Below are positions 4,362 through 62,779 of a DNA stretch of 64,000 nucleotides, piece after piece. The DNA is taken from positions 73,939 through 137,938 of the forward strand of contig CAZYCL010000006.1 in the NCBI GenBank assembly GCA_964645795.1. Direction: 5' to 3'. The notes below the pieces were generated by a model. It was not told the origin of the DNA. It saw nothing but the letters and a program-made list of their open reading frames with translations, and ran no database searches. The translations under genes and the position numbers were made by a program. Within the stretch, counting starts at the first letter, position 1. Each line of letters begins with the position of its first letter. This DNA is from an uncultured Planctomycetales bacterium (lineage in GTDB: Bacteria > Omnitrophota > Gorgyraeia > Gygaellales > Profunditerraquicolaceae).

Positions 4362-4434
4362 GCCGATGTAGCTCAGCTGGTAGAGCAATTGTTTTGTAAA
4401 CAATGGGTCGGGGGTTCGATTCCCTCCATCGGCT
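4362..4434 (+). tRNA. tRNA-Thr (anticodon TGT)
   Basis: A manual cloverleaf fold: acceptor GCCGATG/CATCGGC, D-arm GCTCAGCTGGTAGAGC, anticodon loop TTTGTAA, T-arm GGGGGTTCGATTCCCTC. No CCA is encoded. Confidence 0.8.
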
Positions 4435-4479
4435 TTAATCGGATATGGTATGAACACCCGACCCGAAAGGGGTGCGGCA

Positions 4480-4510
4480 GGCACCTTGCCTTATCGGATA
4501 GGCAAGTGCC
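4480..4510. repeat. GGCACCTTGCC-TTATCGGATA-GGCAAGTGCC hairpin (family H), copy 1
   Basis: Read directly from the sequence. Confidence 0.6.
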
Positions 4511-4518
4511 CCGTTTTC

Positions 4519-4546
4519 TGCGGGGGAAGAATTTCCCCGCGGTTTT
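4519..4546 (+). terminator. GC-rich hairpin (CGGGGGAAGAATTTCCCCGCG) followed by GTTTTGG, a likely intrinsic terminator after tRNA-Thr
   Basis: Seen directly: a stem-loop followed by a T-run. Confidence 0.4.
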
Positions 4547-4612
4547 GGAATGACAGCGACGAACGCATTTTGTGTTGATCAAGCTTTTGGATAGATAAAA
4601 TTTTAATTAATT

Positions 4613-4695
4613 GGGTAGGTACCCAAGTGGCCAAAGGGGGCAGACTGTAAATCTGCTGCACTAGTGCTTCAGAGGTTCGAATCCTCTCCTGCCCA
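4613..4695 (+). tRNA. tRNA-Tyr (anticodon GTA) with a long variable arm
   Basis: Acceptor GGGTAGG/CCTGCCC, anticodon stem-loop CAGACTGTAAATCTG, long variable arm, T-arm AGGTTCGAATCCT. Confidence 0.85.
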
Positions 4696-4756
4696 TTTAA
4701 ATTTTACGACAAGGTTTTGCGCGGGTGCGCAGTATATAGAGGCACCCAAACTTATC

Positions 4757-4787
4757 GGCACCTTGCCCAAAATGACGGGCAAGTGTC
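4757..4787. repeat. GGCACCTTGCC-CAAAATGAC-GGGCAAGTG hairpin (family H), copy 2, preceded by CTTATCGG
   Basis: Read directly from the sequence. Confidence 0.6.
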
Positions 4788-4869
4788 TACCTTCTGGTAG
4801 AACGGATTGGTGCCGCGCCTGGTAAATTAGGCACCCAAATAGATGGCGGTTTGCACGCTGTTGTATTTT

Positions 4870-4918
4870 GCGCACCTGGCGCTAATAGGTATTGCGCCAG
4901 TGCGCGCTAGGTAGCGCG
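4870..4918 (+). repeat. 46-nt tRNA-5'-associated element (family U), copy 1: GCGCACCTGGCGCTAATAGGTATTGCGCCAGTGCGCGCTAGGTAGCGCG
   Basis: It is ~96% identical to 7572-7620, which abuts tRNA-Pro. Here it sits inside a duplicated tRNA-Gly leader/5' end and is flanked by GCG on each side. Confidence 0.7.
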
Positions 4919-5022
4919 GGAGTAGTTTCCCGTTCAGCTATAAGATATCGGACGGGATCCCGCCGTCTGAATTTAAGATGGTGCGGCGGGACAGTGGTAG
5001 AACAATAGCCTTCTCCCGCCGC
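4915..5022 (+). pseudogene. Degenerate tRNA-Gly-derived fragments: the 5' acceptor GCGGGAGTAGTT, then a minihelix GCGGCGGGA-CAGTGGTAGAACAATAGCCTT-CTCCCGCCGC
   Basis: Identical 21-nt D-arm/anticodon-stem segments (CAGTGGTAGAACAATAGCCTT) occur here and in the intact tRNA-Gly at 5094. The fragment has no T-arm and cannot fold into a complete tRNA. Confidence 0.45.
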
Positions 5023-5093
5023 TGCAATTGAGATTCAGGCGGGACTTCGCCGCCAGTGATTGATAGATGGCGGCTCGCAAGCTTTTCTATTTT

Positions 5094-5167
5094 GCGGGAG
5101 TAGTTCAGTGGTAGAACAATAGCCTTCCAAGCTATATATGAGGGTTCGATTCCCTTCTCCCGCTCCA
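5094..5167 (+). tRNA. tRNA-Gly (anticodon TCC), CCA encoded
   Basis: Acceptor GCGGGAG/CTCCCGC, D-arm GTTCAGTGGTAGAAC, anticodon loop CTTCCAA, T-arm GAGGGTTCGATTCCCTT, 3' TCCA. Confidence 0.85.
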
Positions 5168-7571: not shown

Positions 7572-7620
7572 GCGCACCTGGCGCTGATAGGTATTGCGCC
7601 AGTGCGCGCTAGGTAGCGCG
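7572..7620 (+). repeat. Family U element, copy 2, ending at nt +2 of tRNA-Pro
   Basis: Read directly from the sequence. Confidence 0.7.
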
Positions 7621-7693
7621 GGGGATGGCTCAGCTTGGCTAGAGCGCTTGAATGGGGTTCAAGAGGTCGAGAGTTCAAATCTCTCTCCCCCGA
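7619..7693 (+). tRNA. tRNA-Pro (anticodon GGG), with a C1-G72 pair
   Basis: Acceptor CGGGGGA/TCCCCCG, D-arm GCTCAGCTTGGCTAGAGC, anticodon stem-loop CTTGAATGGGGTTCAAG, T-arm GAGAGTTCAAATCTCTC, discriminator A. Confidence 0.75.
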
Positions 7694-13352: not shown

Positions 13353-13360
13353 AGAACCAG

Positions 13361-13447
13361 CCACCAGTCACCGCGCCACCATGTCACCAGCCAAACGGGT
13401 GACTTGGTGACAAGTTCAATCTCATTCGCCGGGTGACTCGGTGACTC
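13361..13447. repeat. GTCACC/GGTGAC hexamer-block palindromic element (family G), copy 1
   Basis: CCACCAGTCACCGCGCCACCATGTCACC...GGGTGACTTGGTGAC...GGGTGACTCGGTGACTC, intergenic. Confidence 0.7.
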
Positions 13448-19059: not shown

Positions 19060-21750
19060 ATGATCGAAATACCCAGTCGCTATAATCCCCACGAAACCGA
19101 GGATAAATGGTATAAGTTTTGGGAAGAGAACGGATTGTTTGCCGCAAAGAGCAATCCTTCCAAGAAGCCTTATTGCATCGTTATCCCCCCGCCCAACGTC
19201 ACCGGCATCCTGCATATGGGCCATGCCCTGAACAATACTATCCAGGATATACTTATCCGCTACCACCGCATGAAGGGCCGGGAGTCGCTCTGGATGCCCG
19301 GCACCGACCACGCCGGCATCGCCACTCAGAATGTGGTAGAGAAGAAGCTTGCCAGGGAGGGGATTAAGCGCCAGGACCTGGGCAGGGAAAAGTTCATCGA
19401 AAAGGTCTGGGAGTGGAGAGAGGAGTACGGCTCGACCATCATCCGCCAGCTCAAGAAGCTCGCAGCCTCCTGCGACTGGCCGCGGCTGCGCTTTACCATG
19501 GATGAGGATTATTCCAATGCGGTTATCGAGGTATTCAGCCGTCTTTATGAAAAAGGCCTTATCTATCGCGGCAGCTACATAATTAATTGGTGCCCGCGCT
19601 GTCAGACCGCGCTTTCTGACGAAGAGGCCCCGCATCAGGAAATGCAGGGCAGCCTTTATTACTTAAGATACCCCCTTAAAGATGTCACCAGGTCACCGGG
19701 TCACCAGGTCACCGGTCAGGAACATGTTGTTGTGGCGACAACTCGGCCTGAGACTATGCTCGGCGATACGGCGGTGGCGGTAAACCCTAAAGATAAAAGG
19801 TACAAAAAGCTCATCGGCAAAACTCTGATCTTGCCTTTGGTAAACAGAGAGATAAAAGTAATCGCTGATTCCGCGGTTGACATGAAGTTCGCAACCGGTG
19901 CGGTCAAGGTCACCCCCGCCCATGACCCCAATGATTATGCCATGGGTAAAAAGCATAACCTGGATTTCGTCAATGTCATGCAGCCGGATGGCCGCATGAA
20001 CGAGTCAGCAGGCGAGTATAAGGATATGGACCGGTTCCAGGCCCGCAAGCTCATCGTAGAACATTTAAAAGAGAAGGGGCTATTGGAGAAGATCGAGCCG
20101 CACGCGCTTTCCGCCGGCCACTGTTACCGCTGCCATACGATAATCGAGCCTTACCTTTCCAAACAGTGGTTTGTGAAGATGAAACCGCTGGCAAAAGAGG
20201 CTATTGATGTCGTCAAGACCGGCAGGATCAAGTTCCACCCTAAGCGCTGGACCAAGGTTTATCTTAACTGGATGGAGAATATCCAGGACTGGTGTATATC
20301 GCGCCAGATCTGGTGGGGCCATCGCATACCGGTCTACTACTGCAGGAACTGCGGCCAAGAGAAGTGTATCGTTTCCAAGGCCAGGCCCGAGAAGTGCCCT
20401 GATTGCAGCTCTGTTGATATTTATCAGGATGAGGATGTCCTGGATACCTGGTTTTCTTCATGGCTTTGGCCGTTTGCGACTTTTTACTGGCCGGATGACC
20501 CAAATAAGGAGGATCTGAAGTATTTTTATCCTACTTCAGTGTTAGTTACTGCTCCTGAAATCATATTCTTTTGGGTGGCGCGCATGATCATGTCGGGCTT
20601 AGAGTTCATGGGCGATATACCCTTTAAGGATGTTTATATCCACGGCACGGTGCGGGATGCCGAAGGCAAGAAGATGTCCAAGTCCCTGGGAAACAGCATC
20701 GACCCGCTTGAGATCATCAAAGAGTACGGCTGCGACGCCCTGAGGTTCAGCTTGATTTCTATTACAGCCCAGGGGCAGGATGTATTCCTGGCTAAGGAGA
20801 GGTTTGAGCAGGGCAGGAACTTTGCCAACAAGCTCTGGAATGCCTCGCGTTTCATACTCATGAACCTGGAAGATGAAGATTGCGGCAAGCGGGATTTGTG
20901 CGAGTTCTTTAAAAAGGAAGACCTGAGCCTGGTCAACCGTTGGATCTTGAGCAGGTTCTACTCGACCCTCAAAGACGTCAATAAGGAGCTCGATTCATAC
21001 CGTTTCAACGAGGCGGCCAATACCAGATATAGTTTTTTCTGGCATGAGTTTTGCGATTGGTACATAGAGATGGTTAAATCCGATATCAAGGATGCGCATA
21101 ATCAGACTGTGGCGTACAAGCTCCTGGAGAATTCGATAAGGATGCTGCATCCGTTTATGCCGTTCATCACCGAGGAGCTTTGGCAGAAAATTCAAGTCAC
21201 CAAGTCACCAAGTCACCAAGTCAGCAGTATTATGGCGGAGAGTTGGCCGCATGTTCAGGAGAATATGATCGATAAAAAGACCGAAACATTGATGAACTCT
21301 GTATTCGAGATCATCACCGCGATAAGAAATTTGCGCGCAGAGCTGGAGATCCCGCTACAGGATAAAGTGGAAATGGTCCTGTGCGTGCCGGGCAGGGAGA
21401 AGTCAAAGTTGATCGGCGGGCTCAGCCAACAGATAGCGGATCTCGCGGGGTTAAAAGGATTGTCTTTGAAGCCGGCGTACGCTGCGGCTAAAGGCCAGAT
21501 CAGTTCGGTGCTGCGTGATATGCATATCGTAATACCCGTATCCGGGATGAGCGAGCCCGCTAAATTCAGGCAGAAGATCATCGAAAGGACGGGGAGGCTG
21601 GCAGGTGAGATAGCGGTCAAGACGAAGATGCTGTCGAACCGCGATTTTGTTAAAAAAGCTCCCAAGGAGGTAGTGGAGAAAGAGAGGGCCAGGCTTTGCG
21701 AACTTAAGGATACCCTCAAAAAACTGGAGGCAGTCAAAGATGGAATCTAA
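19060..21750 (+). CDS. valS: Valine--tRNA ligase
   Basis: HMGH and KMSKS class I motifs and a C-terminal coiled coil. It contains two in-frame GTCACC-repeat insertions (19684-19720 and 21193-21224). Confidence 0.9.
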   Translation: MIEIPSRYNPHETEDKWYKFWEENGLFAAKSNPSKKPYCIVIPPPNVTGILHMGHALNNTIQDILIRYHRMKGRESLWMPGTDHAGIATQNVVEKKLAREGIKRQDLGREKFIEKVWEWREEYGSTIIRQLKKLAASCDWPRLRFTMDEDYSNAVIEVFSRLYEKGLIYRGSYIINWCPRCQTALSDEEAPHQEMQGSLYYLRYPLKDVTRSPGHQVTGQEHVVVATTRPETMLGDTAVAVNPKDKRYKKLIGKTLILPLVNREIKVIADSAVDMKFATGAVKVTPAHDPNDYAMGKKHNLDFVNVMQPDGRMNESAGEYKDMDRFQARKLIVEHLKEKGLLEKIEPHALSAGHCYRCHTIIEPYLSKQWFVKMKPLAKEAIDVVKTGRIKFHPKRWTKVYLNWMENIQDWCISRQIWWGHRIPVYYCRNCGQEKCIVSKARPEKCPDCSSVDIYQDEDVLDTWFSSWLWPFATFYWPDDPNKEDLKYFYPTSVLVTAPEIIFFWVARMIMSGLEFMGDIPFKDVYIHGTVRDAEGKKMSKSLGNSIDPLEIIKEYGCDALRFSLISITAQGQDVFLAKERFEQGRNFANKLWNASRFILMNLEDEDCGKRDLCEFFKKEDLSLVNRWILSRFYSTLKDVNKELDSYRFNEAANTRYSFFWHEFCDWYIEMVKSDIKDAHNQTVAYKLLENSIRMLHPFMPFITEELWQKIQVTKSPSHQVSSIMAESWPHVQENMIDKKTETLMNSVFEIITAIRNLRAELEIPLQDKVEMVLCVPGREKSKLIGGLSQQIADLAGLKGLSLKPAYAAAKGQISSVLRDMHIVIPVSGMSEPAKFRQKIIERTGRLAGEIAVKTKMLSNRDFVKKAPKEVVEKERARLCELKDTLKKLEAVKDGI
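19684..19720. repeat. Tandem octamer repeat GTCACCAG/GTCACCGG x4, in frame inside valS (encodes VTRSPGHQVTGQ)
   Basis: Read directly from the sequence. Confidence 0.8.
21193..21224. repeat. Tandem octamer repeat CAAGTCAC x3.5, in frame inside valS (encodes QVTKSPSHQVSS)
   Basis: Read directly from the sequence. Confidence 0.8.
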
Positions 21751-22621
21751 ATATTTTCTTTCGGATAAGAAGCCGGCACTCGATCAGACAAAAGTGGATG
21801 CAATAGTGAGGCACGCGCTGATAGAAGACATCGGCCACGGCGACATCACTACTCAGCTGACCATCCCAAAAGATAAGGAGATCAAGGCCTCTATCGTCGT
21901 AAAAGAAGATTGCGTGGTCTGCGGCCTGTTCATCGCCGAGAGGAGCTTCAAGGTCTATGACCCCGAAACCAAGTTTAGCGCACAGGTTAGCGAGGGCAGG
22001 AGCGTCAAGAAGGGCAAGGTCATCGTCAAGCTCGCAGGCAAGGCCAGCGGCATACTTACCGCGGAGCGCGTCGCCCTTAACATGCTGAGCATGCTTTCGG
22101 CAATAGCCACTAAGACCCGGGAGTTCGTGAGAGAGATCGAGCCCAATAAGACCAAGATCACTGATACCAGGAAGACATTCCCGGGGCTGCGGGAGCTGCA
22201 GAAGTATGCCGTGCGCACAGGGGGAGGCCATAACCACCGTATGGGGCTGGATGAGATGATCCTGATCAAGGACAACCATATTCAGGTGACCGAAGGCTAC
22301 GACCGCCTGCCCAGCGTCCCCAAAGGATTCAAGATCGAAATAGAGGTCCAGAACCTCGATGAGTTCAGGCACGCCCTTAAGTTCAAGCCTGACGTCATCA
22401 TGCTTGACAACATGGAGCTGGCCGACATTAAGAAGGCGGTGGAGATCCGGGACGGCACAAGCTTCGCGCATTCGCATCACCCCAGGACCAAGCTTGAGGT
22501 CTCCGGAGGCATAAACCTGGAAAATGTGAAGAAGATAGCTTCTGCCGGAGTCGATATCATTTCGGTAGGAGAGCTTACGCATTCGATAGAATCGATAGAT
22601 ATGAGCCTGGAGATAGAGTAG
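21740..22621 (+). CDS. nadC: Nicotinate-nucleotide pyrophosphorylase [carboxylating]
   Basis: The QPRTase-family motifs are present (DITT, RKT.PGLR, KDNHI, LDNM). Confidence 0.85.
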   Translation: MESKYFLSDKKPALDQTKVDAIVRHALIEDIGHGDITTQLTIPKDKEIKASIVVKEDCVVCGLFIAERSFKVYDPETKFSAQVSEGRSVKKGKVIVKLAGKASGILTAERVALNMLSMLSAIATKTREFVREIEPNKTKITDTRKTFPGLRELQKYAVRTGGGHNHRMGLDEMILIKDNHIQVTEGYDRLPSVPKGFKIEIEVQNLDEFRHALKFKPDVIMLDNMELADIKKAVEIRDGTSFAHSHHPRTKLEVSGGINLENVKKIASAGVDIISVGELTHSIESIDMSLEIE

Positions 22622-27510: not shown

Positions 27511-27514
27511 TTAT

Positions 27515-27556
27515 TTGGGGACGGTTCCGGGGACAGGTCCCAGAACCGTCCCCAAA
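27515..27556. repeat. 41-nt palindrome TTGGGGACGGTTCCGGGGAC-AGGTCCCAGAACCGTCCCCAA (family P), copy 1
   Basis: Read directly. It lies 20 nt upstream of the groES -35. Confidence 0.8.
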
Positions 27557-27573
27557 TTTTTTAAAAAAATTAC

Positions 27574-34930: not shown

Positions 34931-34994
34931 TGGTCACCACGTCACCAAGTCACCACGTCACCGGTTTAACGTGTGACCTGGTGGCTTGGTGACC
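34931..34994. repeat. GTCACC/GGTGAC palindromic element (family G), copy 2
   Basis: GGTCACCACGTCACCAAGTCACCACGTCACCGGTTTAACGTGTGACCTGGTGGCTTGGTGACCG. The left arm is identical to copy 3. Confidence 0.8.
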
Positions 34995-35016
34995 GATTGA
35001 ATTTTCCGATAGATTT

Positions 35017-49306: not shown

Positions 49307-49347
49307 TTGGGGACGGTTCTGGGGACAGGTCCCAGAACCGTCCCCAA
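49307..49347. repeat. 41-nt palindrome TTGGGGACGGTTCTGGGGAC-AGGTCCCAGAACCGTCCCCAA (family P), copy 2
   Basis: Read directly, between recO and panE. Confidence 0.85.
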
Positions 49348-52865: not shown

Positions 52866-52917
52866 TGGGGACGGTTCTGGGGACGGTTCTGGGACCTGTC
52901 CCCAGAACCGTCCCCAA
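52866..52917. repeat. Family P palindrome, copy 3, with an internal duplication of GGGGACGGTTCT
   Basis: Read directly, between polX and apbE. Confidence 0.85.
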
Positions 52918-62666: not shown

Positions 62667-62685
62667 AAGTAACTCGTTGCTATTT

Positions 62686-62757
62686 GTCACCACGTCACCA
62701 AGTCACCACGTCACCGGTTTTAACGGGTGAGGTGGTGACAGGTGATCCGGTGACCGG
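62686..62757. repeat. GTCACC/GGTGAC palindromic element (family G), copy 3
   Basis: GTCACCACGTCACCAAGTCACCACGTCACCGGTTTTAACGGGTGAGGTGGTGACAGGTGATCCGGTGACCGG. Confidence 0.8.
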
Positions 62758-62779
62758 TTGTCTATAACTTAAGAGGACT

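Follow-up and report, generated by a model that had tools for sequence, protein, structure and literature searches.

Two in-frame arrays of a GTCACC-containing octamer interrupt valS, the gene for valyl-tRNA synthetase (ValRS), in a 64-kb stretch of contig CAZYCL010000006.1 from an uncultured member of the Omnitrophota (this whole stretch is called the window below). On balance, we favor the reading that the two tracts are passenger long simple sequence repeats (LSSRs) that are carried in frame, are tolerated in permissive loops of ValRS, and evolve by 24-nucleotide (nt) steps or through unit-to-unit conversion. Coding DNA is expected to be cleared of repeats with a unit length that three does not divide; such repeats nevertheless persist here, in frame, in an essential synthetase, and relatives carry them in nadC and other housekeeping genes as well. 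Such tracts are ordinary within the Omnitrophota, though unusual by general expectation.

Results

Octamer tracts in valS

The open reading frame (ORF) that carries both tracts (Table 1) encodes ValRS: its product aligns end to end with the Thermus thermophilus enzyme (1GAX; E = 6e-228), is identical to NCBI protein entry P0001, and has as its closest database relatives proteins from metagenome-assembled genomes (MAGs) of Candidatus Omnitrophota at ~72-75% identity, all named 'valine--tRNA ligase'. Translation shows that the valS frame is kept through tract A, which encodes V209-Q220 (VTRSPGHQVTGQ), and through tract B, which encodes Q712-S723 (QVTKSPSHQVSS). Tandem Repeats Finder (TRF) describes tract A either as 4.5 copies at period 8 (score 56) or as 2.0 copies at period 16 (100% match, score 64), and tract B (21193-21223) as 3.9 copies of CAAGTCAC at period 8 (100% match, score 62). 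Both tracts have the form that defines LSSRs, a unit of 1-11 nt repeated head to tail beyond the length expected by chance. Sequence, TRF, and translation thus bear out an original prediction, made from the sequence alone, that valS holds two repeat tracts and an intact frame.

Each tract is 36 nt long and one-armed, with no inverted partner inside valS, and sequence inspection revealed no transposase, target-site duplication, or remnant of a loop or right arm beside either of them. RNA folding of the tracts gave no structure beyond that of shuffled sequences (z = +0.8 for tract A and z = +1.35 for tract B). We rejected a phase-variable contingency locus, in which unit changes would alter the frame or promoter spacing of a dispensable and usually surface-related gene: the host gene encodes an essential ValRS, the sole one of the locus, and its frame is intact.

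Table 1. Positions of valS, its two tracts, and the intergenic GTCACC hairpins in the window, with the repeat unit found at the loop-B anchor in five genomes
Feature	Position	Strand	Description
valS (valine-tRNA ligase), host gene	19060-21750	+	896 aa; ORF list, translation, 1GAX alignment
Tract A	19684-19719	+	GTCACCAG GTCACCGG GTCACCAG GTCACCGG TCAG; pattern (GTCACCRG)x4
Tract B	21193-21228	+	CAAGTCAC x3, then CAAGTCAG CAGT
Degenerate hairpin, GYCACC / GGTGAC units	13356-13447		LemA>apgM spacer; -37.7 kcal/mol, z = -3.3
Hairpin (GTCACCNN)x4 - loop - (NNGGTGRC)x3	34931-34996		guaA>dnaE spacer; -38.9 kcal/mol, z = -4.9
Hairpin (GTCACCNN)x4 - loop - (GGTGA-type)x4	62684-62758		ppdK>sigma-70 gene spacer; -45.8 kcal/mol, z = -6.1
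Loop-B unit at anchor, window			AAGTCACC
Loop-B unit at anchor, L276			AGTCAACG
Loop-B unit at anchor, L126			GGATAACG
Loop-B unit at anchor, L277			GGCCAGCG
Loop-B unit at anchor, L275			AATAACA (7-mer)

Placement of the tracts in ValRS

Opposite tract A the T. thermophilus enzyme has an 11-residue gap, after its residue 203, and opposite tract B a 7-residue gap, after its residue 698. In an alignment of 50 Omnitrophota ValRS orthologs (A1), the site of tract A, loop A, is bounded by RYPLK and VVATTRPET and lies where the editing domain begins. KDNPDEF is its minimal form, and insertions unrelated to one another occur here in about half of the orthologs. We take loop A to stand ahead of the threonine-rich motif of the editing site, where the CP1 editing domain begins, as in the ValRS structure. 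The site of tract B, loop B, lies in the anticodon-binding region between ITEEIWQ (ITEELWQ in the window) and SIM..WPH, has the minimal form LPHEGES, and holds many different insertions among the orthologs. Both loops are among the most variable segments of the alignment, and a given loop holds unrelated peptides in different genomes and no such peptide in many orthologs. An AlphaFold2 model derived from A1, which is of moderate quality (mean predicted local distance difference test [pLDDT] score 71), is poor in the catalytic core, and was used for residues 211-219 only, presents these residues (pLDDT <50) as a low-confidence coil between strands 196-206 and 222-227.

Because of the gaps in 1GAX, the variability among orthologs, and the low-confidence coil, both tracts are, as judged from these comparisons, lineage-specific insertions in permissive loops. 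This agrees with the earlier suggestion that the tracts are insertions, possibly at surface loops of the enzyme; the two loops in question are the two most variable ones of the 50 orthologs.

Orientation and reading frame

An array of (GTCACCNN)n contains no stop codon in any frame: the three frames read VT, xSP, and xHx, and the 8-nt period visits all three within 24 nt, giving the peptide VTxSPxHx. The antisense word GGTGAC holds TGA in one frame, and (NNGGTGAC)n, also of period 8, places TGA in every frame within three units. A GTCACC array can therefore be coding in the sense orientation only, and a complete GTCACC hairpin cannot code unless its second arm is mutated, because three antisense units close all frames. 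Among the matches listed from other phyla (see below), 0 of 129 arrays is open in antisense, an outcome that follows of necessity from the unit itself and does not count as independent evidence. Within a gene, the viable changes in copy number are gains or losses of three units (24 nt, 8 aa), the alternative being a length-neutral conversion between units. The same argument, in which stop codons limit the orientation of heptamer repeats in ORFs, has been made for TAACTGA in the Beggiatoaceae (MacGregor 2015, PMC4679880).

valS loops in Omnitrophota relatives

As relatives we used nine Omnitrophota loci (L121-L126 and L275-L277; 143.5 kb), which are centered on valS, so that this gene is overrepresented among them; valS synteny is conserved in all nine. 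The ValRS proteins of one clade (P0012, P0015, P0005, P0025, and P0088) are 85-93% identical to one another and 73% identical to the window ValRS, and their loop B contains GTCAC-type octamer units, from one in L124 up to four in L122 and L123. In L121, GTCAC-type units also stand in loop A and in a third loop. Comparison of L121 with L124, whose ValRS proteins are 89% identical, revealed that loop A differs by exactly 24 nt, or three units: one unit, GCCACAAG, is set against four, GTCACAAA GTCACCAG GTCACAAG GTCACAAG. This is a change of whole-unit copy number between related genomes, as is typical of LSSRs, and the 24-nt step is the only copy-number step survivable in an essential gene. A second kind of change is seen in loop B of L123, where units 2 and 3 both read GTCAGGCG, while L122 has GTCACCAG and GTCACCAA at identical total length; the change in adjacent units of L123 is a concerted one.

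The ten loop-B sequences (window and nine relatives) were anchored on the conserved AGT-ATx-ATG (Ser-Ile-Met). In 8 of the 10 genomes, 4-5 tandem units adjoin this anchor in one register, and the units are different but related (Table 1). A single unit is left at the anchor in L124, and in L121 and L125 the GTCAC-type units are broken up by another repeated segment. Read from sequence, this pattern suggests an old, site-stable, in-frame array in loop B whose unit sequence turns over by concerted evolution; a fresh jump from the intergenic hairpins into loop B is less likely. Repeated independent insertion at this one site may also account for the pattern, because the neighbor-joining (NJ) tree is close to a star. 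No intergenic GTCACC hairpin was found in the ~85 kb that flank valS in the relatives with GTCACC arrays in that gene.

Other arrays in Omnitrophota genomes

TRF found 49 arrays of period 7-8 in the nine relatives, 38 of them in called genes and nine intergenic. valS holds 24; others lie in nadC, a PALP enzyme, DFP, and DUF3108. In this valS-centered sample, the arrays measure 30.9 +/- 3.9 nt (4-5 copies) regardless of their unit. The view that repeat intrusion is unusual for a housekeeping synthetase thus does not hold within the phylum.

Two further loops of the relatives' ValRS, loop C in the zinc-finger region (reference residue ~434) and loop D (~480), contain complete in-frame hairpins of heptamer arrays (-19 to -36 kcal/mol). 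These hairpins read CTATCGA at a place where complementarity to the opposite arm would call for CTATTGA, and CCATCC where CTATGA is expected; the mutated TGA/TAG positions show directly that selection edits an inserted repeat. In nadC of L121 (13477-13702) and L275 (13201-13418), inverted AGGTGTT / CCTAACA-type arrays stand in frame, ~160 nt apart, at the same positions in these two distant genomes and in stop-avoiding variants (TCAGG for TTAGG, no TAG). At these two positions, nadC of L126 has arrays with other units; the window nadC (21740-22621) is without such arrays. Outside genes, the window element at 13356 has a counterpart in L277, whose LemA-apgM spacer contains a hairpin of heptamer arrays; intergenic arrays, too, can keep their position while their units differ.

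An in-frame insert that reads GQSP..GTVP, present in loops A, B, and D of many Omnitrophota valS genes, is a translated GGGACAGTCCCC hairpin. A window hairpin family at 27513, 49307, and 52866 is related to this palindrome. That family, the second intergenic one of the window (TTGGGGACGGTTCTGGG / CCCAGAACCGTCCCCAA; GGGGACGGTTC), occupies 27513-27557, 49307-49347, and 52866-52916 and has arms of 17-24 nt that are 92-100% complementary.

Three side observations concern arrays at gene ends and a spacer. A one-armed (TAGTTCA)n array directly follows the groEL stop codon in L126 (12999-13039) and L121 (20005-20038) and precedes a classical GC-rich terminator hairpin with a T-run; the TAGTTCA unit also occurs at L276 20602-20630 and L277 8218-8241. 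In another Omnitrophota MAG (L010, JBFZAD010000193.1, 4904-4942), three copies of GTCACCAA plus GTCGCCGG stand directly after an ATG, forming an N-terminal, in-frame array at the 5' end of a 529-codon ORF. In the window itself, two of the four tRNA genes, which Rfam places within 4362-5164 and 7619-7693, are separated by a spacer with an imperfect inverted repeat of 29 nt (4963-5042).

The GTCACC word and its intergenic hairpins

The window has 56 copies of GTCACC, where 100 dinucleotide-preserving shuffles lead one to expect 15.6 +/- 3.8; none of the shuffles (0/100) reached 56. Of these copies, 29 fall in five clusters (13367-13445, 19684-19713, 21196-21217, 34933-34993, and 62686-62754); the 27 outside the clusters compare with the 15.6 expected in 64 kb, an excess of about 2-fold. 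The three clusters outside valS are intergenic inverted arrays (z = -3.3 to -6.1), in line with the original prediction that the same word builds palindromes at 13361, 34931, and 62686. They form hairpins of 65-92 nt, each in a spacer between co-directional genes (Pfam, eight flanking ORFs; Table 1). A 35-nt stretch (GTCACCACGTCACCAAGTCACCACGTCACCGGTTT), which takes in the left arm and the beginning of the loop, is identical at 34933-34967 and 62686-62720, and the right arms of these two elements differ in the sequence, spacing, and number of their units. Apart from the five GTCACC arrays, TRF found no array of period 7-8 with at least three copies in the window.

No T-run terminator or promoter was found at the 34931 hairpin, and an Rfam scan of the window returned the four tRNAs only, the GTCACC hairpins matching no family. 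A strand test of the three hairpins showed only two wobble (G-U) pairs; folding favors the minus strand in two of them and the plus strand in the third.

Two other classifications were tried and rejected. A DNA uptake sequence type, with one word of 9-12 nt at about one copy per kb in coding and noncoding DNA alike and with inverted pairs serving as terminators, does not fit, the density of GTCACC outside the clusters being raised only ~2-fold and the members being tandem arrays, not single words. A G-quadruplex role, suggested by four GG tracts per four units, was discarded on the grounds that a preference for 4-5 copies is seen in arrays of G-poor units as well; G-quadruplex heptamer arrays have at least four tracts of at least three G residues, and antisense GGTGAC has GG only.

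GTCACC arrays beyond the phylum

When 185,579 species-representative genomes were scanned with GTCACCNNGTCACCNNGTCACC, at least 120 loci matched; we use the scan as a measure of breadth only, not of counts. The matches listed include Chloroflexota, Cyanobacteria, Planctomycetota, Bacteroidota, Gemmatimonadota, Verrucomicrobiota, Acidobacteriota, and another member of the Omnitrophota, as well as Streptomyces, where they are possibly due to chance in high-GC DNA. Many of the matches listed take the shape of (GGTGACAA)n-loop-(TTGTCACC)n hairpins or adjoin arrays of other units. The genomes concerned tend to be rich in such repeats: in the 120 loci listed there are 342 arrays of period 7-9, made from 188 distinct units. 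Pfam places in-frame GTCACC arrays inside the B5 domain of the phenylalanyl-tRNA synthetase β subunit (PheRS-beta; L043, Anaerolineae), in the C-terminal part of DnaE (L091, Anaerolineae), in a polyketide synthase (PKS) linker just upstream of the acyl carrier protein (ACP) domain (L016), and in a PMT_2 glycosyltransferase family protein (L021). Outside the Omnitrophota, too, the same octamer thus stands in frame in essential genes (PheRS-beta and DnaE of Anaerolineae).

In IMG/VR (L127-L274), GTCACC triplets of period 8 occur in 102 viral-contig stretches, against 8 for GACCTC, 19 for CTCGCA, and 19 for CCATCG, an excess of 5-13 times over these three composition-matched hexamers. About 20% of the GTCACC stretches have GGTGA partners within 80 nt. 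GTCACC thus seems to be favored as an array word. As a separate observation, contig IMGVR_UViG_3300042504_001487 (L150 / L200) contains blocks of 3-5 CACCAGGT units ending in CAACAGCAG, which recur many times at 41-57-nt spacing at the contig end as a higher-order repeat.

Discussion

The tracts are ~32-nt arrays of four 8-nt units in two structurally permissive, hypervariable loops of ValRS, and they are members of a class of tandem arrays with 7-8-nt units, frequently in inverted pairs or hairpins, that is abundant in the spacers and genes of the Omnitrophota. GTCACCNN is the current unit of this genome, and the same word forms its three intergenic hairpins; the word may have been exchanged between loci. 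Inside genes, three filters act on such arrays: only the sense orientation is admitted, the net length has to be a multiple of 3, and arrays are kept only by loops that tolerate extra residues. Further change would then proceed by 24-nt frame-preserving steps or by conversion between units, with slippage or conversion as the presumptive driver. The arrays are most likely passengers without a role in aminoacylation.

Several points weigh against this reading. The NJ tree separates the window ValRS from the other clade with GTCACC in loop B; GTCACC in both groups is therefore either convergent or very old, in a tree that is nearly a star. All five window arrays of period 7-8 with at least 3.8 copies consist of one word, and the intergenic copies at 34933 and 62686 share their identical 35-nt stretch; together, these findings speak for copying between loci and not for independent local slippage. 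The near-constant array length of ~31 nt is not predicted by free slippage, whereas a module of defined size would predict it. The AlphaFold2 model is mediocre (mean pLDDT 71), and the neutrality of the tract peptides is an assumption.

Some of these points (the one word in five arrays, the identical 35-nt stretch, and the ~31-nt length) keep alive the possibility that the tracts derive from a mobile element. The intergenic GTCACC hairpins would then be a family resembling repetitive extragenic palindromic (REP) sequences or MITEs (miniature inverted-repeat transposable elements), and the valS tracts would be truncated, one-armed copies that survived by being in frame, sense oriented, and in a tolerant loop, by analogy with Rickettsia palindromic elements (RPEs). 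The concentration of the word at five loci in 64 kb and the uniform four-unit arm of all members are consistent with this, as are the complete in-frame hairpins in loops C and D of the relatives' valS, since local slippage alone cannot build an inverted repeat, and the recurrence of GQSP..GTVP (the GGGACAGTCCCC hairpin) at three loops (A, B, and D) among scattered orthologs. However, neither tract is flanked by a transposase, a target-site duplication, or a loop or right-arm remnant; the single loop-B register across eight genomes with different units fits descent better than repeated hits; and the diversity of units, 188 in other phyla (among the matches listed) and dozens in the Omnitrophota, is too high for one family. 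That an intergenic family propagates into valS, as had been proposed, is thus unproven: the loop-B register is common to 8 of 10 genomes, and ~85 kb of flanks of the relatives with GTCACC arrays in valS showed no intergenic GTCACC hairpin. We regard a mobile origin as rather unlikely.

More doubtful still, and offered as speculation, is a unit-agnostic "repeat-writing" or homogenizing process in the Omnitrophota, and probably also in the Chloroflexota, Planctomycetota, and Cyanobacteria, that would make modules of ~31 nt. Its products might be 4-5 tandem 7-8-mers, often with an inverted partner, placed at fixed sites that include essential genes, with stop codons edited out by selection; GTCACCNN might be a favored product of this process across phyla. 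We raise this idea because ordinary slippage leaves unexplained the constant length, the conservation of position with turnover of units, and the 5-13-fold excess of GTCACC. A dedicated generating mechanism, if true, would be a new kind of genome-shaping process.

It is improbable that the tracts are functional modules, in which the peptides or the RNA or DNA tracts would be selected as a linker or interaction surface, a protein-binding array, or a translational pause signal. Such a role could explain why positions are conserved across distant genomes (valS loop B and the two nadC sites), why GTCACC arrays of period 8 outnumber their controls in IMG/VR (102 stretches against 8, 19, and 19), and why hairpins stand consistently between co-directional genes, as they do in Xanthomonas (PMC4692102). 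Yet peptides at the same loop are unrelated between genomes and missing from many orthologs, the coding tracts have no RNA structure beyond that of shuffles, and the hairpins have no Rfam match, no T-run terminator, and no consistent strand preference in predicted folding energies, which leaves the functional model weak. Least of all do we credit coincidence, that is, independent local duplication of Val-Thr codons unrelated to the hairpins: GTC ACC is an ordinary codon pair, both tracts begin and end in the VT frame as one seed unit plus 24 nt would, and outside the clusters the enrichment of single GTCACC words is just ~2-fold, but it is far beyond chance that 64 kb should contain five arrays alike in hexamer core and in four-unit length, and the window has no other period 7-8 array of at least three copies.

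The tracts are natural markers of insertion-tolerant ValRS loops and a hitherto unrecognized source of protein length variation in a poorly known, largely uncultured phylum. They also set a trap for annotation and alignment: Omnitrophota ValRS proteins range from 862 to 980 aa, largely through such tracts. The data set suits the study of concerted microsatellite evolution under a strict frame constraint.

Comparison with known repeat systems

No description of in-frame arrays for the Omnitrophota was found in the searched literature. REPs are characterized by a GTAG or CGTC tag and by dependence on REP-associated tyrosine transposases (RAYTs), which are IS200/IS605-like Y1 transposases (PMC3116915, PMC3733652). 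Like REPs, REP doublets forming hairpins (REPINs), and bacterial interspersed mosaic elements (BIMEs), the window hairpins are intergenic imperfect palindromes that lie between co-directional genes in several copies; unlike them, they have internally periodic arms. Of the GTCACC arrays, it is only the intergenic ones that answer to the description of a REP or REPIN as a short imperfect palindrome found several times between genes. In the 34933 and 62686 elements, CGTC stands within units (ACGTCACC) but not as a tag at the end; the valS tracts and the 13356 element have no CGTC. Membership of the window hairpins in the REP/REPIN group is not established.

RPEs are palindromes of ~100-150 bp that encode 30-50 aa, are confined to Rickettsia, and do not consist of tandem 7-8-mers. 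Described, reportedly, by Ogata and coworkers in 2000, they are said to occur both in intergenic regions and in frame in conserved genes, where they add a peptide at tolerated sites and leave function intact. The outcome seen here is RPE-like, with in-frame insertion in a conserved gene alongside intergenic copies of the family. In contrast to RPEs, which are whole palindromes, the valS tracts are 36 nt long and one-armed and evolve unit by unit. RPEs are discussed in PMC1779305 and PMC10969869.

The TAACTGA direct repeats of Beggiatoaceae and cyanobacteria occur in 2-6 copies, mainly just upstream of start codons (MacGregor 2015, PMC4679880), and those inside ORFs lie at protein termini (PMC4679880). 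Shared with them are the short unit, the occurrence in distant phyla, and an orientation in ORFs that is dictated by stop codons in one strand; the arrays described here differ in standing in internal loops of essential enzymes, with hairpins in spacers.

The GGGAATC / GGGGAYT arrays of Xanthomonas and Nostoc show a preference for about four units and lie between aligned ORFs (Rehm et al. 2015, PMC4692102). In Xanthomonas, GGGAATC arrays form 70-75 inverted pairs and are close to stop and start codons, and many convergent inverted pairs can form stem-loops (PMC4692102). The intergenic GTCACC hairpins closely resemble these Xanthomonas arrays in their four units, inverted pairs, and location in aligned-ORF spacers (PMC4692102), and both fall within the LSSR class as Mrazek defined it (summarized in PMC4679880). 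They differ in that GGTGAC offers only GG, that the Omnitrophota prefer 4-5 copies of any unit, and that most arrays sampled here, in a valS-centered sample, are coding.

LSSRs and the cyanobacterial short tandemly repeated repetitive (STRR) heptamers are among the closest known systems. As summarized in PMC4679880, LSSRs have units of 5-11 nt, with heptamers as the most abundant class, and occur in several bacterial phyla (Mrazek et al. 2007). With LSSRs as described in that summary, the arrays share head-to-tail 7-8-nt units in few copies, a length beyond chance, a sporadic phylogenetic distribution, and slippage as the presumed driver; a mostly intergenic location of LSSRs is likewise listed among the shared traits. 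Unlike the LSSRs of that summary, the arrays place units that are not a multiple of three in frame in essential genes, occupy the same loops across the phylum, and have a nearly fixed total length of ~31 nt.

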